This document shows, piece after piece, positions 13,349-42,046 of a DNA stretch of 64,000 nt. The DNA lies in NCBI GenBank assembly GCA_949286725.1, contig CASECZ010000002.1:420632-484631 (forward strand), in the 5' to 3' direction. The position numbers and the translations under genes are program-made. The notes beneath the pieces were generated by a model. It was not told the DNA's origin. It did no database searches and was given only the letters and a program-made list of their open reading frames with translations. Within the stretch, counting starts at the first letter, position 1; the number at the start of each line of letters is the position of its first letter. Origin of the DNA: an uncultured Clostridia bacterium (GTDB lineage: Bacteria; Bacillota; Clostridia; Christensenellales; CAG-917).

Positions 13349-14584
13349 TCACTCGGGTGCGCCTTCTCTGTCGAATATTTCCGCCGCTTCGATTGCAATA
13401 TCGACGCCGAGAGAGAAAGTCTTGCGGTCCATATTGTCAGCGGTGTCTTTTACGTTGTGATAGTAGTCGGCGGGCGTGGGATCCATACCCGCGAGGCAGG
13501 TCGCGCGCAGTCCGCTCTTGGTGATTGCGGCGGCGTCCGACGCTCCGAAAAAAACGGAGAAGTGTTTGAGGGGTCTGCCGCAAGCCGCTGAGGCTTTGTC
13601 CAGCAGTTTGACCGCGCCCGCGTCGTGGGCTATCGTGCCGGTCAGGTCGCGGTTGTAGATGTTGAGATAATCCCAGTCGCGCAGGGTTTCGAGCCCGATG
13701 AACACGGTCTCGACGTCGCTAGACAGAATTTCGTCACGGTGTTTCTTCGCCCACGCGAACGCACCGCGCAGCCCCGCTTCCTCCGAGCCTGTGAGCACGA
13801 GGTCGACCTCGGTGTGCTCGAAGCGTATGCCGCTCTCTTTCAGGCATTTCAGCACCGCAACCGAAGCGAGTACGCCCGTCAGGTTGTCGTTTGCGCCCGG
13901 GACGACCACTTTGAAGTTGCAGAAGAAAAAGAGCAGAATGTAGAAGGGAATGAACAGCGACGTCACGAGCAGGCTCCACCAGCTCATCTCGCCGCGCACG
14001 ATGTTGAGGATGCAGAGCGCGACGGACGCGAGCACTCCGACCACGCAGAATACGATCGTCACGATCATGAATGCGGGCTTGATTTTCATCAGCGTCCATT
14101 CGTATGCCGAGTCGCAGTGCCCCGAGAACACGATTCTGCGACGGGTTTCGCCCGAACTCTTATATTTTGCGTAGACGTTGCCCGACGTGGTCTTCGGAAG
14201 CAACGGGTCGATGAAAGGTTTGTAGAGCAGAAACTCCATTATCGTGATGAGCAACGATATCGCCGCAAGTACGACAGTCACGATGTGGCAGGCGAGTGCC
14301 GCCTCGGCGACGAGCAGTGCGACGAACTGCATCGCGGCTGCAATGACGAGCAGCACGGACACGATTTTGGTGAATCCGACCAGCCCGTGGCGGGACACCG
14401 TGAAGTCCTCGATTTCGGCTTCGTCCGCCCATTGATTGTCGAGGAGCTGGCTTTTCAGCCATTCCTGTGCCTTTCTTTCGTTGGGCATGCCGGACTCTCT
14501 CGGACCTATCTCTTCGCAGATGTACTTGATGGCACCGAGGCTGTAATCGACAGCGTCGTCCCTTATTTTCTGTGATACGCGCAT
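13349..14584 (-). CDS. M28-family metallopeptidase with membrane-spanning insert
   Basis: GANDNLTGV and GSEEAGLRGA motifs typical of M28 aminopeptidases, plus several TM helices. The start was chosen at MRVSQK (ATG at 14584). Confidence 0.75.
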   Translation of the reverse strand: MRVSQKIRDDAVDYSLGAIKYICEEIGPRESGMPNERKAQEWLKSQLLDNQWADEAEIEDFTVSRHGLVGFTKIVSVLLVIAAAMQFVALLVAEAALACHIVTVVLAAISLLITIMEFLLYKPFIDPLLPKTTSGNVYAKYKSSGETRRRIVFSGHCDSAYEWTLMKIKPAFMIVTIVFCVVGVLASVALCILNIVRGEMSWWSLLVTSLFIPFYILLFFFCNFKVVVPGANDNLTGVLASVAVLKCLKESGIRFEHTEVDLVLTGSEEAGLRGAFAWAKKHRDEILSSDVETVFIGLETLRDWDYLNIYNRDLTGTIAHDAGAVKLLDKASAACGRPLKHFSVFFGASDAAAITKSGLRATCLAGMDPTPADYYHNVKDTADNMDRKTFSLGVDIAIEAAEIFDREGAPE

Positions 14585-14657
14585 TTGCCGCTCCCGTTGC
14601 GCACGTTCGTGCGTTGTTACAATCAATATATCACAGGAAAAGAAATATTACAACACT

Positions 14658-14677
14658 TTACCGTCGGTTACCGTCGG
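14658..14677. repeat. perfect 10-nt tandem duplication (TTACCGTCGG x2)
   Basis: Read directly in the intergenic region between the M28 peptidase and TetR genes. Confidence 0.95.
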
Positions 14678-14873
14678 TTGATGGGTTGAAAGGGCGGGGT
14701 GCGGTCGCCGCGGTCGGAAAATGACGTGCACGGAAAGTATGCCGATAAACCACACAATGCGCGGATTACGCAGAAAAGTATGTCGGAGATACATTAAATA
14801 TACTCGTGTATGATATGTTGACAAAGGGTGCCATCTGTGACATAATTATACCAAACCGAGGAGGAACTCCGTT

Positions 14874-15443
14874 ATGGAATACAAGGAAGACCTGCGCATC
14901 GTGCGCACGAGAAAACTGCTCAGTTCGACGTTGCTTGATATGATGCAGGAGTGCTCCATAGAAAAAATAAGCGTCATCGACCTGTGCAACCGCGCAATGG
15001 TCAACCGCGCCACGTTTTACGCGCATTTCGAAGATAAGTATCATTTGCTGTCATTTGCGCTCGAAGAACTCAAAGACGGCATATATGCCAATTTCACGCG
15101 CGAAGTGCCCGCCACGACTCCCAAGGAGATGTTGCGACAACTCATTATGATGGCGGTGGAGTATCTTTCGGACAAACACAACCATATTGCGCAGGTGGTG
15201 AAATACAACCGCAACGAAAAAGTGGTGCAGACGCTGACCGACTCGCTCGCGCAGTCCGTGAAATATCAGCTGAGCAAGTTTCGTAATACGCGTCCCACAA
15301 TCGTGCCTTCGCAGATGACGGCGGTGTGTTACGCGGGCGCTTTGGTCAATCTTTTGTTGCTGCTCATCGACAATCCTTCAATGCTTGCCGATCCGCAACT
15401 TAACGACCAACTCAACGCGCTGGTGGACGAAAACCTGCGCTGA
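14874..15443 (+). CDS. TetR/AcrR-family transcriptional regulator
   Basis: N-terminal HTH (..IEKISVIDLCNRAMVNRATFYAHFEDK..). GAGGAGG RBS. Confidence 0.85.
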   Translation: MEYKEDLRIVRTRKLLSSTLLDMMQECSIEKISVIDLCNRAMVNRATFYAHFEDKYHLLSFALEELKDGIYANFTREVPATTPKEMLRQLIMMAVEYLSDKHNHIAQVVKYNRNEKVVQTLTDSLAQSVKYQLSKFRNTRPTIVPSQMTAVCYAGALVNLLLLLIDNPSMLADPQLNDQLNALVDENLR

Positions 15444-15461
15444 CGCAGACGCAAAACAAAC

Positions 15462-15488
15462 AAAAAACGGCGGAAACGCCGTTTTTTT
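15462..15488. terminator. bidirectional rho-independent terminator
   Basis: AAAAAACGGCG-GAAA-CGCCGTTTTTTT between convergent genes. Confidence 0.8.
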
Positions 15489-15552
15489 GTACCTTTTTCC
15501 GAATCGTTCTTAGGACATATGCCGAGGTCGAACGGTGCGAGGACGTCGTTCG

Positions 15553-16599
15553 TCACACGCCCACGACGAGCAAAGCTATGTAGGCGACGTATCCCGCAAG
15601 CATAACCGCACCTTGCCAACGGTGGAACCTGCCCGTGACGAGAGAAGGAATGAGAGCAAACGCCGCCACTGCCAGACAGAAAGGCATATCCAGCGTCAGC
15701 GTTTGTCCTCCGACGGGCAGAGAGCCGCCCGAAATCATAGAACAAAGCGGCAGAATGAGAGCGATGTCTATTACGTTTGCACCTATTATGTTGCCCACCG
15801 AAAGTTCGGATTTCTTTTTGGCTATTGCGGTTATCGTGGTGACAAGTTCGGGCAATGAAGTGCCCACGGCTATTATCGTGACGCCGATAATGCTGGAAGG
15901 AACGCCGAGCATAAGGGCGAGTTTTTCGCCGTATTCGACAAGCAGAAAGGCGCCGCCGACTATACCGCCCGCTCCGAGCAGGAACATAGGAATGTATTTG
16001 GCGAGCTCTTTGGGTTCGACGCGTGCGCGTCTGCGCTTGCGGGTGACTGTGCCGTCGGGGTTGACGTTGACGTCGGGGTTGTCGTGCACACAGTTATATT
16101 CGTCCACAATAATCGCGTCCGCAAGCGTAAGCGACCTGTCGTTGTGCTTTTTCGCGCTTATCAGGTTTTCCACTATGAAGAGTACGAACACGGCAAGCAC
16201 GATGAAGGAGTAGCCGAGGTCGAGCGAGCCGCCCGAGGAAAGACCCCACAGCAAGGTTATCGCGGCAAGCAGCATTATGTCCTTGGCAAGGTAGTCCTTG
16301 CGGTTGATTTTCGCGGGGATGAAGAGCAGGCTGATTGACATTATGAGCCCGATGTTCGCGTTGACGGAGCCTATGGCGTTGCCGATTGCCATGCCCACGT
16401 CGTTCTGCGCCGCGGCGATGGACGACACGAGAATCTCGGGCAGAGTGGTGGCGAGAGAAACTATCGTTGCGCCTATTATGAAAGAGGGAATGCCCGATAC
16501 GGACGCAATCCAGCTTGCGGCGTCCACGAACCAGTCTCCGCCCTTGATGATGAGAAAGAGCCCGATGGCAAGCAGTAGTATCGTTATAAACCATTCCAT
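15553..16599 (-). CDS. Ca2+/Na+ antiporter (CaCA / YrbG family)
   Basis: Two alpha-repeat regions (GNAIGSVNANIGL.. and GNIIGANVIDIAL..). About 10 TM helices. Confidence 0.85.
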   Translation of the reverse strand: MEWFITILLLAIGLFLIIKGGDWFVDAASWIASVSGIPSFIIGATIVSLATTLPEILVSSIAAAQNDVGMAIGNAIGSVNANIGLIMSISLLFIPAKINRKDYLAKDIMLLAAITLLWGLSSGGSLDLGYSFIVLAVFVLFIVENLISAKKHNDRSLTLADAIIVDEYNCVHDNPDVNVNPDGTVTRKRRRARVEPKELAKYIPMFLLGAGGIVGGAFLLVEYGEKLALMLGVPSSIIGVTIIAVGTSLPELVTTITAIAKKKSELSVGNIIGANVIDIALILPLCSMISGGSLPVGGQTLTLDMPFCLAVAAFALIPSLVTGRFHRWQGAVMLAGYVAYIALLVVGV

Positions 16600-16754
16600 A
16601 CGAAAAAAACTATCATCATTGCGACCCGCTGTCAACGGTTGAGGGACAAAAAGGAACAATAAAGTTTCCCGCGGCTAACGAACGCGGCTGCGGGAATGAA
16701 TGTGCGCGCTTGACTTGCTCCCGCGGCGTTTGTATAATCGTTGAAGAGGTGCTT

Positions 16755-18401
16755 ATGACGGAATTGCTTTTGAAAGGCGGCAAAGTCGCAGACGGCGAAA
16801 AGGCAACGCTCCACAACGCGGACGTTCTGATATCCGACGGCAAAATCGTCGCGGTCGGCGAGGGGATTTCCGCTCCCGACGTACCCGTCGTCGATTGCGA
16901 AGGACTTATCGTAACCGCGGGTTTCATCGACGCGCACGTGCACATCGAATCAGGCATGGTGTTGCCCGACGAATTCGGCAAAGCCGTGTTGCCGCACGGC
17001 ACGACCGCGGTGATTGCCGACCCGCACGAAATCGTCAACGTAGCGGGCGCGAAAGGGTTGAGGGAGTTCCTCGACGACATACACGACGCGCCCATAGACA
17101 TATTCGCGGTGGTGCCTTCCTGCGTTCCCGCCACTCCGCTGGACACCAACGGCGCGGGCAAGTTCCTTGCCGAGGACATGAAGGAATTCGTCGGACGCAA
17201 AGAAGTCGTGGGGCTCGGCGAGGTCATGAGTTTCTACGACGTTGTCGACGGTGACAAAGAGATGGCGGACAAACTGGCGTTGTTTGCCGACAGAACCATA
17301 GACGGGCACACTTCGGGTATGCCCGAGGAACTGCTGGACGCCTACGTTGCCGCGGGCATAAGCGACGACCACGAATGCACAGACGCGCACTCCCTTTACG
17401 AACGCTACAAGCGCGGAATGAAGGTGTACATAAGAGAAGGCAGCGCGGCGCACAACGCCCGCGACCTGCTCGCCGCCGTAAGGGACATGAAACTCGACAC
17501 CCGTCGTTTTGCCTTCTGTACGGACGACAAACATCTCGGCGCGGTCAAGAAGGAAGGACACATCTCCCGCATAGCGCAGATAGCCCGCGAAGAAGGCTTC
17601 GAATGGGGCGAAATCGCAAGAATGGCGGCATACAACCCCGCAAGGTATTACGGGTTGGAAAAGCGCGGCAACATCAAGGAAGGATACCTTGCCGACATAG
17701 CCGTCGTGAGCGACGACGCGACCCGCGTCGCCTACGTCGTAAAGAGCGGCAGACTGGTGGCGCAAAACGCAGAACTGTGCGATGAAGTGTCTAAAACGAG
17801 AGTTGAACACAGGAGTTTTGAAAATACCGTGAAATTCAGAGAGTTTACGGAAAAGGATTTCGAAGTTCCCGAAAGGCTCAGAAACATCGCGCTTGAACTG
17901 GTGGACGGGCAACTCGTTACGCTGAAAGCGGAGCTTGCGGACGGGGAGTGGAAGTCCCTCGACATGCTTGCCACGGCGGAGCGTTTCGGCAAGAACGGCA
18001 ACCTGTCCGTCTGCGTGTTGAAGAACTACGGCATAAAGGGCGGCGCGGTGGCGACGAGCGTATCGCACGACTCGCACAACGCCGTGTGTGCGGGCGACAA
18101 CGCGCGCGACATGGCGGTTGCGCTCAACAGGCTGAAAGAACTGGGCGGCGGTTACGTCGTCGCGGCACAGGGCAAGGTGGCGGGCGAACTGCCTCTGCCC
18201 GCATACGGGCTGATGTCCGTCACGGACGCCGAAAGCACGGAGGAGTGCATAGCGCGGTTGGAGAAACTCGCGCACTCGATGGGCGTCAACGCAAACGTGG
18301 ACGTGTTCACCACGCTGTCCTTCGTCGCGTTGCCCGTCATTCCGTTCGTAAGGCTGCTCGATACGGGGCTTTACGACACGCAGGAAAGACGCTTTCTGTA
18401 A
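16755..18401 (+). CDS. ade: adenine deaminase
   Basis: GFIDAHVHIESGMV metal-binding motif. About 548 aa with the two-domain architecture typical of Ade. Upstream promoter is TTGACT-17-TATAAT. Confidence 0.85.
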   Translation: MTELLLKGGKVADGEKATLHNADVLISDGKIVAVGEGISAPDVPVVDCEGLIVTAGFIDAHVHIESGMVLPDEFGKAVLPHGTTAVIADPHEIVNVAGAKGLREFLDDIHDAPIDIFAVVPSCVPATPLDTNGAGKFLAEDMKEFVGRKEVVGLGEVMSFYDVVDGDKEMADKLALFADRTIDGHTSGMPEELLDAYVAAGISDDHECTDAHSLYERYKRGMKVYIREGSAAHNARDLLAAVRDMKLDTRRFAFCTDDKHLGAVKKEGHISRIAQIAREEGFEWGEIARMAAYNPARYYGLEKRGNIKEGYLADIAVVSDDATRVAYVVKSGRLVAQNAELCDEVSKTRVEHRSFENTVKFREFTEKDFEVPERLRNIALELVDGQLVTLKAELADGEWKSLDMLATAERFGKNGNLSVCVLKNYGIKGGAVATSVSHDSHNAVCAGDNARDMAVALNRLKELGGGYVVAAQGKVAGELPLPAYGLMSVTDAESTEECIARLEKLAHSMGVNANVDVFTTLSFVALPVIPFVRLLDTGLYDTQERRFL

Positions 18402-37135: not shown

Positions 37136-37408
37136 ATGAACAAGAACGATTTTGTGAAAGCAGTCGCCTGCAAAGCAGACCTCTCCATCAAGGACGCCAC
37201 CGCAGCGGTGGAAGCATTCTCCGATGTCATCGCAGACGCGCTTAAAGCCGGCGACAAAGTTGCCATCGCAGGTTTCGGAACTTTCGAACTCAAAAAGAAA
37301 GCGGAAAGAAGCGGCTTCAACCCCATCAAGAAAGAAGTCATCGTCATCCCCGCCAGCAATTCTCCCGTTCTTAAATTCGGCAAGGCGTTCAAGGATATGT
37401 TCAACTGA
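37136..37408 (+). CDS. hup: HU-family DNA-binding protein
   Basis: MNKNDFV..GFGTFELKKKAERSGFNP.. is a canonical HU. AGGAGG RBS. Terminator at 37422-37451. Confidence 0.95.
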   Translation: MNKNDFVKAVACKADLSIKDATAAVEAFSDVIADALKAGDKVAIAGFGTFELKKKAERSGFNPIKKEVIVIPASNSPVLKFGKAFKDMFN

Positions 37409-37545
37409 GCGAAACCACAATAAAAAGAGCACCCGCACAAGGGCGCTTTTTTTATGTCCTTTTCTGTCGCAACACTTTTCGAAAGTCTGTATTTTTGGAG
37501 AAACAAAACGACGGATTTGTATATATTTTTAAGGTCGGACAAGTG

Positions 37546-37574
37546 TTTACAAAGCGCGTCGGGGTTGGTATAAT
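37546..37574 (+). promoter_or_regulatory. promoter of the aminotransferase-kinase-aldolase operon (TTTACA-17-TATAAT)
   Basis: TTTACA at 37546-51 and TATAAT at 37569-74. Confidence 0.55.
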
Positions 37575-37607
37575 TTCAGTAATGATAAAAATTATGGGAG
37601 GCATTTT

Positions 37608-39110
37608 ATGTCAAACGGTTACGCAATATCAAACTGGCAGGACGCCAAGACCATCTACAAGGAACTGGCAGAACTGACCTCTAAACCCATTTACTGCATT
37701 TCCGACGAGGAACTCAAACGCGTCCTCGAACATTTCGACACCAAGTGTGCCAAGTCCAAGGAGATTATTTCCGAAGCGAAGAAGTACATCCCCGGCGGCG
37801 TTCAGCACAACCTCGCCTTCAACTTCCCCTTCCCGATTTGCATTACCAAGGCGGACGGCGCTTATCTCTACGACATCGACGGCAACAAGTACATCGACTT
37901 CCTGCAAGCGGGCGGTCCCACCGTTCTCGGCAGCAACTATCCCGCCGTCAGAGAAAAGGTGTTTGAACTGCTCAACGATTGCGGCCCCGTCACGGGTCTT
38001 TTCCACGAAGCCGAACTCCTGCTTGCGAAAGAAGTCAACAAGCATATGCCTGCTTGCGAAAAATTCCGTATGCTCGGTTCCGGCACCGAGTCCGTCATGG
38101 CGGCAATCCGCGTCGCAAGATGCGTCACCCGCAACAAGCGCGTCATCAAGATCGGCGGCGCATATCACGGCTGGTCCGATCAGATGGTCTACGGTCTGAA
38201 AATTCCCGGAAGCCGCAACTTCCTCGAATCTCACGGCATCCCCGGCGGTTGCTTCGCGAAGACGGACGAAGTTCGCCCCAACGACCTCAACATGCTGGAA
38301 GCCATGCTCCGTAAGAACAAAATGCGCGGCGGCACCGCGGCGGTCATCGTCGAACCCGTCGGTCCCGAAAGCGGCACCCGTCCCGTCGACTTTGATTACA
38401 ACAAGAAAGCCCTCGAACTGGCTCACAAATACGACGCGCTGTTCATCTTCGACGAAGTCGTTACCGGCTTCCGCGTAGGTCTCGGCGGCGCGCAGGGCTA
38501 CTTTGGCATCAAACCCGACCTCACCATCTTCGGCAAGGTCATCGCGGGCGGCTATCCCTCTGCGGGCGGCGTCGGCGGCAAGAAAGAGTATATCGACCAC
38601 ATGGCGGCAGGCGTTGCGGGCATGGGCAAGCGCGCTTACGTCGGCGGCACTCTCGCTGCAAACCCCCTCTCCGCATATGCAGGATACTGCTGCATCAAGG
38701 AAATCGAACGCACCGACGCTTGCGCCAAGGCAGGCAAAGCGGGCGACAGAATCACCCAGGGTCTCAAACAACTCATCGCAAAATACAATCTGCCTTTCGT
38801 GGCATACAACCAGGGTTCCATCGTTCACCTCGAATGCACGGGCGCAATGAGCTATGATTTCAGTTCCATGAGCGTGCTCGGCTCCGTCATCCCGATGCTC
38901 AAAGCCAAGGACGAGATGATGAACAGAAAGGTCGCAATGGAACAGATGGGTGCCGCGTATATGGCAAACGGCATCGTGACGCTCGCCGGCAGCAGACTTT
39001 ACACCTCCATGGCAGACACGGACGAAGTCATCGACGACGCACTTGCCCGTTTCGAGAACGTGTTCAAGACGGTTGTTCCCGTCACGCGCGAACTCAACAA
39101 AAAAGGTTGA
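37608..39110 (+). CDS. class-III PLP aminotransferase / glutamate-1-semialdehyde aminomutase-like enzyme (long form, 500 aa)
   Basis: GSGTESVMAAIRVAR, FDEVVTGFR, and FGKVIAGGYP with the PLP lysine. N- and C-terminal extensions relative to HemL-size proteins. Confidence 0.85.
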   Translation: MSNGYAISNWQDAKTIYKELAELTSKPIYCISDEELKRVLEHFDTKCAKSKEIISEAKKYIPGGVQHNLAFNFPFPICITKADGAYLYDIDGNKYIDFLQAGGPTVLGSNYPAVREKVFELLNDCGPVTGLFHEAELLLAKEVNKHMPACEKFRMLGSGTESVMAAIRVARCVTRNKRVIKIGGAYHGWSDQMVYGLKIPGSRNFLESHGIPGGCFAKTDEVRPNDLNMLEAMLRKNKMRGGTAAVIVEPVGPESGTRPVDFDYNKKALELAHKYDALFIFDEVVTGFRVGLGGAQGYFGIKPDLTIFGKVIAGGYPSAGGVGGKKEYIDHMAAGVAGMGKRAYVGGTLAANPLSAYAGYCCIKEIERTDACAKAGKAGDRITQGLKQLIAKYNLPFVAYNQGSIVHLECTGAMSYDFSSMSVLGSVIPMLKAKDEMMNRKVAMEQMGAAYMANGIVTLAGSRLYTSMADTDEVIDDALARFENVFKTVVPVTRELNKKG

Positions 39111-39119
39111 GAAATTATG

Positions 39120-39149
39120 ACACGAGCGAGCGTTTTTGCTCGCTCGTGT
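39120..39149 (+). other. 12-bp perfect intercistronic stem-loop
   Basis: ACACGAGCGAGC-GTTTTT-GCTCGCTCGTGT with no T tail, followed by a second CCCCG..CGGGG hairpin. Confidence 0.6.
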
Positions 39150-39214
39150 GCTATAATGTCTTCGCAAGCCCCGTTATGCGGGGATTTGCCACATTCCGTA
39201 TGAAGGGGTAAACT

Positions 39215-40747
39215 ATGAATTACATCATTTCACACGACATCGGCACCAGTTCCGACAAGGCCGTTCTGGTCGATTTCAACGGGACCATCATCACCACGGT
39301 CGCCGAACCGTATCCGACCTATTATCCCGCACCCGCTCACGTCGAGCAGGACCCCAACGATTACTGGAAAGCGGTCTGCATCACGACCAAAGCCATAATC
39401 AAGAAGGCGGGCATTCAACCCGAGGACGTAAAAGGCATCGTTTTCTCCACGCAGGCGCAGGGCGTCATTCCCGTGGACGAGAACGGCAACAACCTCATGA
39501 ACAACATCACCTGGGTTGACGGCAGAGCGGAGAAGCAGGCGCAGGCGATTATGAACCGTCTCGGCGGCAAGAAGCTGTTCACGATGTTGGTCGGCACTCC
39601 CATTATGGGCAAGGACTGCATCGCAAAAATGGCGTGGGTCCGCGACGAGAAACCCGAAGTTTTCGCCAAGACCAAATACTTCCTCGACGTCAACGGCTGG
39701 CTCAAATTCAAGTGCACGGGCAAGATGTACGCGGAACTCTCCGGCGCGTCCTCTTACGGTCTCGACCTCAAAAAGAAGACCTGGATGAGCGCGTTCCCGC
39801 TTGTCGGCGTCGATATGAAGAAGTTGCCGCCTCTCTGCAAGAGCACCGATATGATAGGCGATGGTCTGACCGCGCTTGCCGCGGCGGAAACCGGGCTCGT
39901 CAAGGGCACGCCCGTTTTCGGCGGTTGCGACGACGTTCAGTCCGCGGTCGTCGGCAGCGGTATGACGGGTGACGGCGAAATTCACATTTACCTCGGCACT
40001 TCCGCGTGGGTTGCCGCTCCTTCCAGAAACGCGACCAAGTTCATGCACGGCGCAGCGGCGATTCAGTCCGCCGACCCCGAAATGAACCTCATTGCGGGCA
40101 TCACCGAAGCCGCGGGCAGCAACATTCAGTGGATTTGCGACCAGTTCTTCAAACACGAGAAGGAACAGCTGGGCGACGGTATATACGCGTATATGGACAG
40201 CGTCATCGACGACGTCCCCGCGGGCTCCGACCACCTCATCTGCACTCCGTGGATGCAGGGCGAAAGATGCCCCGTATCCAGCACCACGACCCGTTCCACG
40301 CTGTTCAACATCAACCCCATTCATACCCGTGAACATCTTATGCGCGCGGTTTACGAGGGCGTTGCTTACAACCTGCGCTGGATACTCGAAAATTACCGTA
40401 AGGACTACGGTTTCGAGGGCAACAACTTCCGCATCATAGGCGGCGGTGCGCTGGACAAGGGCTGGATGCAGATCATCGCAGACGTCACGGGTTGCAATTT
40501 CTCCGTCGTGAAGAACCCCAGAAACGCGGGCGCACTCGGTTGCGCGATCGTCGCGCTCATCGGCCTCGGAGAACTCAAGAACTTCTCCTGTGCCAAAGAT
40601 TTCGTGCAGATTGAGGCGAGTTACAAGCCCAATCCCGCAAACAAAGCAATATACGACAAACTTTTCGCCGATTACAAGACTTTGTATCTGGCGCTCAAAC
40701 GGCCGTACATAACGGCAAATGCCAAGAGATTCGAGGGGATGGAATGA
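39215..40747 (+). CDS. FGGY-family carbohydrate kinase
   Basis: N-terminal HDIGTSSDKAVLVD and the later GGGALD motifs typical of FGGY (xylulo-/glycerol-kinase-like) enzymes. Confidence 0.85.
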   Translation: MNYIISHDIGTSSDKAVLVDFNGTIITTVAEPYPTYYPAPAHVEQDPNDYWKAVCITTKAIIKKAGIQPEDVKGIVFSTQAQGVIPVDENGNNLMNNITWVDGRAEKQAQAIMNRLGGKKLFTMLVGTPIMGKDCIAKMAWVRDEKPEVFAKTKYFLDVNGWLKFKCTGKMYAELSGASSYGLDLKKKTWMSAFPLVGVDMKKLPPLCKSTDMIGDGLTALAAAETGLVKGTPVFGGCDDVQSAVVGSGMTGDGEIHIYLGTSAWVAAPSRNATKFMHGAAAIQSADPEMNLIAGITEAAGSNIQWICDQFFKHEKEQLGDGIYAYMDSVIDDVPAGSDHLICTPWMQGERCPVSSTTTRSTLFNINPIHTREHLMRAVYEGVAYNLRWILENYRKDYGFEGNNFRIIGGGALDKGWMQIIADVTGCNFSVVKNPRNAGALGCAIVALIGLGELKNFSCAKDFVQIEASYKPNPANKAIYDKLFADYKTLYLALKRPYITANAKRFEGME

Positions 40748-41991
40748 AAAACGAACACATTTACGCAAGTATGAAGAAGTACGCCGCCGAGCTGTTCGCC
40801 GACGGTTATATCGAGAGCGGCTACATCGCCGCCAAAGCCGACGAGGGTATGTACATCACCACGCCCGACGCCGACTTCGCCGACCTCAAAGAAGAGCAGG
40901 TCGCATTCGTTACGGACAAGACCGTGGAGCAACTCGAAGGCAACTTCCGTGCGGCGGCGGTCGTGTTGCTGTGCGCGCTCAAAGCCAAAAAGGACGCGGG
41001 TGCCGCGGCGATAGTCGACAGTAAGAGCATTCTCGAATTCTCCCGGAAGAGAATGACTTTGCCTCCCGTCCTCGAAGACATGTCTCAGATTTGCGGCATC
41101 AGCGTGCGCGCGGCGAAGAAAAACACCGCAGCCGAAACCGTTGCCGCGCTTGCCGGACTCAGAAACGCGTGCTTCCTTCCCGAAGCGGGCGCGGTTGTCA
41201 CGGGACGCACCCTTGCGGAAATCTATACGGGGACGCTCGTTCTCGACAAATCCGCAAACGGTTATCTGCTCGCCGAAAAGAAGGGCGGCATCAAACACCT
41301 CAACGCATTCGAAGCCAGCGTAGAGCACATTGTGTATAAGCTGAAATATTCCAAGAAGAACCAGGACAGCCAGAAGGCGGCGGAAGCGGGCAAGGAAGTA
41401 GACCTCGCCGAAAAACCCTCCGCAATCGTCACCGACGAGCTTAAAAAGGTCGCGCAGGACATAAAAGACGCCGGCGTCAAACTGCTGGAAGAGAACCTCG
41501 TGCAGGGCACCTGGGGCAACATCGCGGTCAGACTCGGCGACAAGGAGATGATGGCGACGCCTTCCGCGCTCGACTACATCATGCTAAAACCCGAACAGAT
41601 GGCAATAGTCGATATGGAGACGATGGAGTGGAAAGGCTCCAATAAGCCCACCAGCGAAAAGGGCGTGCACGCCAAAATCCTGCTTGCACACCCCGAAACC
41701 AACGCAACGGTGCACACTCATCCCTTCTACGGCAGCATACTTGCCGCAATGAGACAGCCTTTGCCCGTCCCCGAGAAATACCGCGACATACTTGGCGACG
41801 TCGTGCCCGTCAGCAAGTTCGGTCCTTCCGGCACGGGTATGCTGGTCAAGAACACTGCCGAAGCAATCGGCAACGCGCCCTGCTGCTTTATGGCAAGCCA
41901 CGGCGTCATCGCCCGCGGCAAGGACCTCGAAGAGGCGTTTGCAATCTGCCGTGCGCTCGAAGACGCGTGCAAGGATTATCTCCTCGGCTGA
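40744..41991 (+). CDS. tandem class-II aldolase/adducin-domain protein
   Basis: Two aldolase_II-like halves. The C-terminal half keeps the metal ligands (..HAKILLAHPETNATVHTHPFYG..). The start overlaps the kinase stop. Confidence 0.8.
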   Translation: MKNEHIYASMKKYAAELFADGYIESGYIAAKADEGMYITTPDADFADLKEEQVAFVTDKTVEQLEGNFRAAAVVLLCALKAKKDAGAAAIVDSKSILEFSRKRMTLPPVLEDMSQICGISVRAAKKNTAAETVAALAGLRNACFLPEAGAVVTGRTLAEIYTGTLVLDKSANGYLLAEKKGGIKHLNAFEASVEHIVYKLKYSKKNQDSQKAAEAGKEVDLAEKPSAIVTDELKKVAQDIKDAGVKLLEENLVQGTWGNIAVRLGDKEMMATPSALDYIMLKPEQMAIVDMETMEWKGSNKPTSEKGVHAKILLAHPETNATVHTHPFYGSILAAMRQPLPVPEKYRDILGDVVPVSKFGPSGTGMLVKNTAEAIGNAPCCFMASHGVIARGKDLEEAFAICRALEDACKDYLLG

Positions 41992-42011
41992 CGGCTTTTT
42001 AACGTATTCGG

Positions 42012-42046
42012 AGCGGAAGACCGCGTTGCGGTTTTCCGCTTTTTTG
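42012..42046 (+). terminator. rho-independent terminator
   Basis: AGCGGAAGACCGC-GTT-GCGGTTTTCCGCT plus TTTTT. Confidence 0.8.

Follow-up and report, generated by a model that had tools for sequence, protein, structure and literature searches.

We analysed a 64,000-nucleotide stretch of DNA (the window) from an uncultured Clostridia bacterium (Christensenellales; CAG-917; assembly GCA_949286725.1, contig CASECZ010000002.1, positions 420,632 to 484,631) and describe here a unit of three co-directional genes which, according to the open reading frame (ORF) listing and family scans, encode a class-III aminotransferase (AT), an FGGY-family kinase (KIN) and a double class-II aldolase (ALD). By sequence comparison, this trio is the stripped core of a widespread module that is conserved across three bacterial phyla. 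We propose that the module breaks down or detoxifies a 2-amino-1,3,4-triol compound, which would yield dihydroxyacetone phosphate (DHAP) and an aldehyde, and we put the probability of this reading at roughly 0.45. Among possible substrates, a sphingoid base of the phytosphingosine type is the leading candidate, and a tentative one. The original prediction, which was made from the letters of the window, had called the unit an orphan operon. This did not hold, as the module was found in gut Clostridia, on two plasmids, in about 80 soil metagenome loci and in fused forms. Literature searches found no paper that describes the AT-kinase-aldolase trio or its pathway, in agreement with the earlier statement that no route of this composition had been described.

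The aminotransferase, the kinase and the tandem aldolase

AT (37608-39110, plus strand, 500 residues) belongs to the class-III pyridoxal 5'-phosphate (PLP) aminotransferases (PF00202, E 2e-53; 182 bits against a cut-off of 30.5). Its PLP lysine, K310, lies within FGKVIAGG, and this residue and the cofactor-binding aspartate D282 both align with the corresponding lysine and aspartate of glutamate-1-semialdehyde aminomutase (GSAM). The long class-III enzyme with a PLP lysine in FGKVIAGGYP that the original prediction had read from the sequence was thus recovered. A family motif, GGVQHNLAFNFPFP, starts at residue 63. The best matches of AT are glutamate-1-semialdehyde aminomutases, GntE and D-phenylglycine aminotransferase, and HemL models are its top NCBIfam and PDB matches. 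AT nevertheless scores below the HemL cut-offs (NF000818, 292 of 398 bits; TIGR00713, 274 of 527; NF009055, 231 of 637). Where GSAM has GGVNSPVRAF, AT reads GGVQHNL-AF, and in four GSAM alignments the arginine that binds the substrate carboxylate is met by a gap or a leucine. Neither hemA (glutamyl-tRNA reductase, PF05201) nor hemB (porphobilinogen synthase, PF00490) was found in the 97.8% complete host genome (1.5 Mb in 8 contigs), and the controls were positive. Because of these sub-cut-off scores, the missing arginine and the failure to find hemA and hemB, we take AT to be a predicted GSAM-like class-III aminotransferase and not HemL. An aminomutase, which the original prediction had offered as one option, is unlikely. 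AT also carries an N-terminal extension of ~45 residues that is common to the fused Thermoleophilia-type forms described below. A search of the ESM Atlas with AT returned only 'class III aminotransferase', and among 1.8 billion cluster representatives the AT family was distinct down to ~40% identity and then merged with HemL-level scores.

KIN (39215-40747, plus strand, 510 residues) contains both FGGY domains (FGGY_N, E 3e-50, 171.5 bits; FGGY_C, E 3e-26, 92.9 bits), which confirms its first assignment as an FGGY-type kinase. It is nearest to XylB, with FucK and RhaB at a much greater distance, yet stays under every curated cut-off (TIGR01312, 302.5 of 380.25 bits; NF011601, 152 of 912). Orthologues of KIN with 69-95% identity were observed only beside AT and the aldolase. 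The stop codon of KIN and the ATG of ALD overlap as ATGA.

ALD (40744-41991, plus strand, 415 residues) has two Aldolase_II stretches in the family scan and is an internal duplication, with halves that are 26% identical over 163 residues (E 2e-6). The C-terminal half (41416-41991; Aldolase_II, E 2.5e-46) is a FucA-like catalytic domain in which GTWGN (at 255), ATPS, TSE305, H324-T-H326 and H386 are invariant or at least 90% conserved among 20 homologues; it keeps the phosphate-binding residues of FucA, the glutamate and the three histidines. The N-terminal half (40744-41388) has the class-II aldolase fold without a metal site. It reads AAIVDS at residues 88-93 and lacks all metal ligands, yet it is itself strongly conserved in the homologue alignment, with D92, S93, D112, Q115 and R155 among its conserved positions. 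Two aldolase_II/adducin halves with a metal triad only in the second had been proposed earlier, and E305, H324, H326 and H386 indeed occur in the C-terminal half only. In relatives the degenerate domain is a separate gene, and we regard the N-terminal half as a putative non-catalytic partner domain. The alignment to FucA ends near FucA residue 182-188, where the protein stops, so that the C-terminal lid of FucA (F206 and Y209 in E. coli) is missing. The best model for L-fuculose-phosphate aldolase, the equivalog NF005302, gives 116.6 bits against a cut-off of 264. An AlphaFold model of ALD has a predicted local distance difference test (pLDDT) value of 91 and a predicted template modelling (pTM) score of 0.87, and each half of it matches FucA, AraD, DrdA or YgbL at 1.3-2.5 Å. 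The structures of FucA and DrdA (6btd, 6btg) are the best PDB matches of the catalytic half, and none of the structure matches is a solved chain that covers both halves.

The order of the two halves is not fixed. Acutalibacteraceae-type genomes carry a tandem aldolase with the active half first, which stands alone among housekeeping genes (loci L111:7182-8297 and L112:2989-4188). The two orders suggest that active and degenerate aldolase genes were fused independently.

The history of AT differs from that of its partners. The window AT and the AT proteins of two close genomes, G004 and G006, form another lineage than those of the remaining genomes of the genus (70-72% identity; 500 versus ~555 residues), and in the AT tree the window AT falls in a different, well-supported clade from that of its congeners. 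KIN (86-95%) and ALD (75-90%), unlike AT, follow the genus (loci L123 and L124 versus L016-L018, L105 and L125-L127). It looks as if a single gene of the module had been replaced in place. The longer AT type of the congeners (L125, L126, L027) ends in a Lys-rich tail of ~50 residues, beginning KKRDKKIKKAEK, that is missing from the window AT and could serve in binding to membranes or nucleic acids.

Distribution and gene content of the module

The relatives of the host are uncultured gut and rumen Clostridia of the Christensenellales type, and among 41 relatives AT, KIN and ALD travel together. Across 89 Clostridia loci with an AT orthologue we observed three arrangements, namely AT-KIN-ALD, AT-ALD and TetR followed by AT alone. 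AT adjoins the aldolase in about 55 of the 89, with the kinase between or beside both in 27, and the aldolase is either fused or split into two genes with the degenerate one first. For the AT-alone type, a TetR gene precedes AT in four of five genomes tested, and all five hold elsewhere a tandem aldolase with reversed halves and a kinase that is 36-38% identical. The best match of this kinase paralogue in the genome of the window is KIN, and in one context examined the paralogue lies behind its own TetR gene. Among the relatives examined, the adjacent kinase and the paralogue are mutually exclusive. The module is retained in reduced genomes of 1.1-1.8 Mb. One Clostridia lineage has an MFS_2 transporter of the glycoside-pentoside type 3' of the module genes.

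In Stercoripulliclostridium-type genomes, the AT-aldolase pair and MFS_2 are flanked by Big_3/MBG_2 surface proteins of 1100-3900 residues (L103:4185-7940 and 14150-17482; L118).

Beyond the Clostridia, AT and aldolase are also found as a single protein. More than 120 protein clusters contain aldolase::AT fusions of ~720-760 residues, in which the active aldolase domain precedes AT; the fusions come from Thermoleophilia-type and other uncultured bacteria, and the few clusters with an organism name are labelled Thermoleophilia. An FGGY kinase overlaps the fusion gene or lies one to four genes away. In one genome TetR, fusion and kinase form an operon with the kinase overlapping the fusion, and in others the kinase sits a few genes off beside a major facilitator superfamily (MFS) transporter. 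Two cultured bacteria carry the module on plasmids. Butyrivibrio fibrisolvens D1 has the order FGGY-aldolase-GtrA-AT, where GtrA is a small membrane protein, and Burkholderia ambifaria CF3 has a TetR gene and a tight operon of FGGY kinase, aldolase, AT, a 215-residue protein, a short-chain dehydrogenase/reductase (SDR) and an aldehyde dehydrogenase (ALDH), flanked by two IS5 transposase genes, one at each end. Given its location on plasmids and alongside insertion sequence elements, the module is probably mobile. The 215-residue protein has no Pfam match, and its sequence resembles that of a degenerate aldolase. When family profiles were compared, it matched the degenerate domain of a tandem aldolase from Clostridia (hhalign E 2e-6); against the N-terminal half of the window ALD alone, the profiles are in register and the match is not significant (E 0.04).

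Relatives of the Burkholderia gene were collected from 80 soil and rhizosphere loci, which give a consensus operon of TetR < DUF2147 > outer-membrane barrel (Gcw_chp/TorF) > KIN > ALD > AT > degenerate ALD > MFS > (SDR) > ALDH. Counting only loci with enough flanking sequence, the kinase is present in 35 of 36, TetR in 29 of 36, DUF2147 and the outer-membrane barrel each in 23 of 36, the MFS transporter in 37 of 40 and ALDH in 16 of 40. In these high-GC loci ORF calling sometimes merged the aldolase into AT, and the counts of aldolase and degenerate aldolase are lower bounds there. The module-linked ALDHs score best against the model of MdlD, a benzaldehyde dehydrogenase. We defined the module as a linked or fused set of a GSAM-like AT with GGVQHNLAFN, an FGGY kinase, and an active and a degenerate Aldolase_II domain. 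The window holds this four-part set, and so do other Clostridia, the Burkholderia plasmid and the soil loci. The original prediction had tied its proposal to such co-conservation, and the three genes do occur together far outside the genome of the window, with AT and aldolase even fused.

In GCA_026002915.1, genes for a low-molecular-weight phosphatase and a fructosamine-kinase-like protein lie just 5' of the TetR-aldolase::AT-FGGY operon (L128/L129:6807-8191).

A proposed pathway and its alternatives

In the pathway that we propose, AT would turn the C2 amine of the substrate into a ketone and would thus stand in place of the aldose-ketose isomerase of sugar pathways. The kinase would phosphorylate the neighbouring primary hydroxyl at C1, and these two steps could come in either order; if the kinase acted first, AT and aldolase would be consecutive, which would fit their fusion in other lineages. 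The zinc aldolase would then split the ketose-1-phosphate analogue into DHAP and an aldehyde. The active site would be on the C-terminal half of ALD, which the degenerate N-terminal half would serve as an integral partner subunit. The cell would gain DHAP and an amino group, and the aldehyde would be oxidised or reduced by other enzymes. Since an ALDH follows downstream in other lineages, we consider the aldehyde to be a product and not the substrate of AT. In the case of phytosphingosine, cleavage would give DHAP and a fatty aldehyde three carbons shorter; the window comes from a fermenter, whose AdhE-like protein could handle it.

We favour this amino-polyol reading because it uses every conserved gene once, needs no missing isomerase and explains the closing ALDH. 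FucI (Fucose_iso_N1) and RhaA were not found in the host genome, with positive controls, and EutB was not found there either. With FucI, RhaA, EutB, hemA and hemB all not found, we see no isomerase that would feed the kinase and the aldolase. An ordinary fucose, rhamnose or ethanolamine-lyase pathway was rejected, as FucI, RhaA and EutB were not found. The order of steps in the original prediction, from amine to carbonyl, then phosphorylation and retro-aldol cleavage, is still the best fit to the comparative evidence, whereas the amino-deoxy sugar named there as a substrate is less likely than a lipophilic amino-polyol. The latter preference comes from the accessory genes of other lineages (DUF2147, the outer-membrane barrel, TetR, GtrA and the MdlD-like ALDH). 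DUF2147 resembles the lipocalins, whose fold serves as a carrier of hydrophobic small molecules (bioRxiv 10.1101/2025.07.29.667474). We also counted the missing FucA lid of the catalytic aldolase half toward a hydrophobic substrate. TetR repressors often sense lipophilic ligands. To our knowledge, phytosphingosine is the sole abundant natural 2-amino-1,3,4-triol, and it suits the habitats of the module, which include the rumen, the herbivore and human gut and the rhizosphere. Candidate sphingoid bases of this type, which plant, fungal or host lipids would supply, are lipophilic, require no importer of their own in Gram-positive cells and are toxic to Gram-positives.

Parts of this scheme have counterparts in known systems. 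As in the catabolism of fucose, rhamnose and D-arabinose (FucI-FucK-FucA, RhaA-RhaB-RhaD), an FGGY kinase is paired with a class-II zinc aldolase whose products are DHAP and an aldehyde. Unlike those pathways, the module has no isomerase and has a class-III aminotransferase as its conserved third partner; its kinase is XylB-like and not FucK- or RhaB-like, and its aldolase, without the C-terminal lid of FucA, is tied to an obligatory degenerate partner domain. The DHAP shunt, or 5-deoxyribose salvage (MtnK-MtnA-Ald2; DrdK-DrdI-DrdA), likewise has a FucA-like aldolase that cleaves a phosphorylated ketose analogue into DHAP and a non-sugar aldehyde. However, its kinase is of another family, and it uses an isomerase in place of an aminotransferase and involves no amine. 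AT shares its class-III PLP subgroup, with the conserved PLP lysine and aspartate, with HemL and the GSAM-like transaminases (GntE, D-phenylglycine aminotransferase and the aldehyde transaminases associated with nonribosomal peptide synthetases (NRPS)). It differs from HemL in lacking the carboxylate-binding arginine, in its scores and in its N-terminal extension, and tetrapyrrole genes were not found in the genome of the window.

For sphingoid bases, eukaryotes use a long-chain base kinase, sphingosine-1-phosphate lyase and fatty aldehyde dehydrogenase. This route resembles the proposed one in its C1 phosphorylation, its PLP enzyme and the release of a fatty aldehyde that an aldehyde dehydrogenase then oxidises. 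In eukaryotes, however, the PLP enzyme cuts between C2 and C3 and yields phosphoethanolamine, while here a transaminase and a metal aldolase would cut between C3 and C4 and yield DHAP. The eukaryotic enzymes are unrelated in family to those of the module, and the genome of the window gave no PF00282 match. A precedent for the first AT step is FumI of fumonisin degradation, a class-III aminotransferase that removes the C2 amino group of a sphingoid-like amino-polyol; neither a kinase nor an aldolase follows it. FumI is absent from the 49 PDB sequences that match AT at E <= 1e-20 and is not close in sequence. In Pseudomonas aeruginosa, the SphR regulon (sphA, sphBCD, cerN) is induced by sphingosine and includes a predicted outer-membrane porin, with a predicted oxidation followed by aldol cleavage (PMC3900636). 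Unlike the module, it comprises an AraC regulator, a cytochrome c, an oxidase and a threonine-aldolase-family protein, and it lacks an FGGY kinase, a class-II aldolase and a class-III aminotransferase.

Several observations weigh against the breakdown of an amino-triol. No transporter, regulator, ALDH or small membrane protein lies beside the trio of the window. A search of the genome for the neutral ceramidase family gave no match, and neither did its positive control. In two genomes of the same family, G021 and G022, the syntenic site still holds a tandem aldolase (32-35% identity), and these genomes have neither an AT orthologue nor a related kinase. KIN resembles the 5-kinases XylB, GntK and LsrK more than the 1-kinases FucK and RhaB, and we know of no FGGY kinase that acts on a lipid. 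Finally, GSAM and GntE, the nearest characterised relatives of AT and its best-scoring characterised families, work at aldehyde carbons, which favours an aldehyde substrate, and AT relatives of 39-47% identity adjoin other makers of aldehydes, either an NRPS terminal reductase domain or thiamine pyrophosphate (TPP) enzymes (L115:2665-8452; L119:3982-7158; L130:115-3235). These relatives fit aldehyde-to-amine transaminases in natural-product or other pathways.

The last two points also speak for the main rival reading, a division of labour that we consider possible and rather doubtful, in which the kinase would give a ketose 1-phosphate, the aldolase would release DHAP and a reactive aldehyde, and AT would aminate the latter. 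In reverse, an amine such as ethanolamine would become an aldehyde, which the aldolase would condense with DHAP. The aldolase-AT fusion would then channel a reactive aldehyde. However, this leaves the kinase without an obvious role in the amine-to-sugar direction, makes the ALDH in AT's own operon redundant and calls for an isomerase or a source of free ketose, neither of which was found in the genome of the window; the proteobacterial uptake genes (lipocalin-like DUF2147 and the outer-membrane barrel) do not suggest a sugar. A small and polar amino compound (an amino-sugar, amino-alditol or ketoamine) is an unlikely substrate of the proposed chemistry; one such route would be a GSAM-like shift from a 2-amino-aldose to a 1-amino-ketose before phosphorylation and cleavage. 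Such a substrate was the idea of the original prediction, and it agrees with the usual action of FGGY kinases on sugars and polyols, with the MFS_2 transporter after the module genes of one Clostridia lineage and with the fructosamine-kinase-like and phosphatase genes upstream of one fused version. Yet a 1-amino ketose cannot yield DHAP, for whose phosphate the catalytic half keeps the binding residues of FucA; natural 2-amino-2-deoxy-alditols are rare, and the accessory genes suggest that the compound is hydrophobic.

The module could also run in the biosynthetic direction, which we regard as distinctly improbable. Here the aldolase would join DHAP to a fatty aldehyde and AT would aminate C2, giving the phosphate of a phytosphingosine-type base, 3,4-diol included, without oxygen or serine palmitoyltransferase. 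Aldolase equilibria favour condensation. The module is kept in reduced genomes, and the unit of the window lies behind a near-consensus promoter in a genome without a TetR repressor of the module type, both of which would suit synthesis. The same holds for a report that Flavonifractor plautii, an anaerobic member of the Clostridia, makes phytosphingosine, for which no genes were named (PMC11914097); a synthetic direction in strict anaerobes, if true, would explain this phytosphingosine of an anaerobic gut species. A catabolic role, on the other hand, is suggested by the kinase and, in other lineages, by the TetR repressors, the uptake genes and the ALDH. Least probable of all, by a wide measure, is that AT is a HemL of haem or corrin synthesis placed by chance beside an ordinary kinase-aldolase pair for a pentulose or fuculose. 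The top NCBIfam and PDB matches would agree with this, and several sources name AT relatives glutamate-1-semialdehyde aminomutase. The scores under the cut-offs, the missing GSAM arginine, the failure to find hemA, hemB, FucI and RhaA in the genome and the fusion of AT to aldolase in other phyla all contradict it, and the HemL identity is refuted as far as sequence can go.

If the amino-triol reading with a sphingoid substrate is true, the module would be the bacterial route, missing so far, by which sphingoid bases are broken down or disarmed, and it would use sugar-pathway enzymes in a new combination. Plant, fungal and host membranes are rich in sphingoid bases, which serve as gut signals and are toxic to Gram-positives. 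What appears to be new here is a transaminase at the position of the isomerase in the kinase-aldolase scheme, together with an aldolase that seems to need a dead paralogue; the fused and tandem forms would be a natural case of a class-II aldolase that depends on a catalytically dead paralogue. Whatever its substrate, the module is present in gut and rumen Clostridia, in soil bacteria of the Actinomycetota type and in rhizosphere Proteobacteria, where it is plasmid-borne and flanked by two IS5 transposase genes. The module has no annotation at all, and databases label its aminotransferase HemL. It can be tested in the cultured strains B. fibrisolvens D1 and B. ambifaria CF3.

Transcription signals and flanking genes

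The unit is preceded by a sigma-70-type promoter, TTTACA-17-TATAAT with a TG extension (37546-37574, plus strand), which matches at 11 of 12 positions and is the promoter named in the original prediction. The two nearest congeners, G006 and G004, retain its hexamers and spacing, although the flanking DNA has diverged. A GGGAGG ribosome-binding site lies ahead of the ATG of AT at 37608. The unit is closed by an intrinsic terminator (42010-42042, annotated up to 42052, plus strand) with a 15-pair stem (8 G-C pairs) followed by a T run and a fold z of -3.8, so that the earlier description of three co-directional genes and a strong terminator, then placed at 42012-42046, stands. It was also correct that the unit contains neither a transporter nor a regulator; its neighbours are an HU gene upstream and xpt downstream. 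No TetR orthologous to that of the module was found in the genome of the window. We observed a short motif, ATTTGTAT, ~25-30 bp 5' of the -35 box (window ~37513-37525) that is kept in all three close genomes (L123 and L124 upstream) and may be a candidate operator for another regulator.

Between AT and KIN, directly after the AT stop codon, lies a terminator-like stem-loop of 12-13 bp without a proper U tail (39120-39149, plus strand). This is the perfect 12-bp stem-loop reported from the sequence, and folding of the 116 nt from 39105 to 39220 supports it (-51 kcal/mol, z = -6.0). A hairpin occurs at the same place in five relatives (G006, G004, G001, G005 and G020) with different stem sequences, and in some a T run follows; the hairpin is conserved, with compensatory changes. 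Abutting it, we read an extended -10 box, TGCTATAAT (39149-39157, plus strand), as a candidate internal promoter for KIN and ALD; G006 has TGTTATAAT at this place. In the simplest reading, the hairpin would act as a partial terminator or as a 3'-end protector of the AT message, with a separate entry for KIN and ALD. Because a conserved terminator-like hairpin is followed by TGCTATAAT between the first two genes, the unit may be two transcripts. The minimum-free-energy fold around ~39168-39183 has a longer second stem that pairs with the ribosome-binding site of KIN, and this pairing was not seen in the nearest relative, G006. A repeated REP-like (repetitive extragenic palindromic) element was rejected, as the hairpin sequence occurs once in the genome. 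Neither the leader nor the regions between the genes gave an Rfam match at E <= 1 to a riboswitch or another known RNA.

An anti-phage defence role was rejected, as PADLOC gave no match. On the 5' side, the HU gene has its own terminator, and a PepSY protein and a P-type ATPase are encoded farther out; on the 3' side, xpt is accompanied by a BMP-type ATP-binding cassette (ABC) system. The tandem aldolase of G021 and G022 adjoins a P-type ATPase gene and, in one of the two, also xpt (L028:726-2006, L029:5003-6253). The HU gene (37136-37408) lies on the strand of AT here and in the congeners, and runs against AT in most other members of the family (16 loci versus 6).

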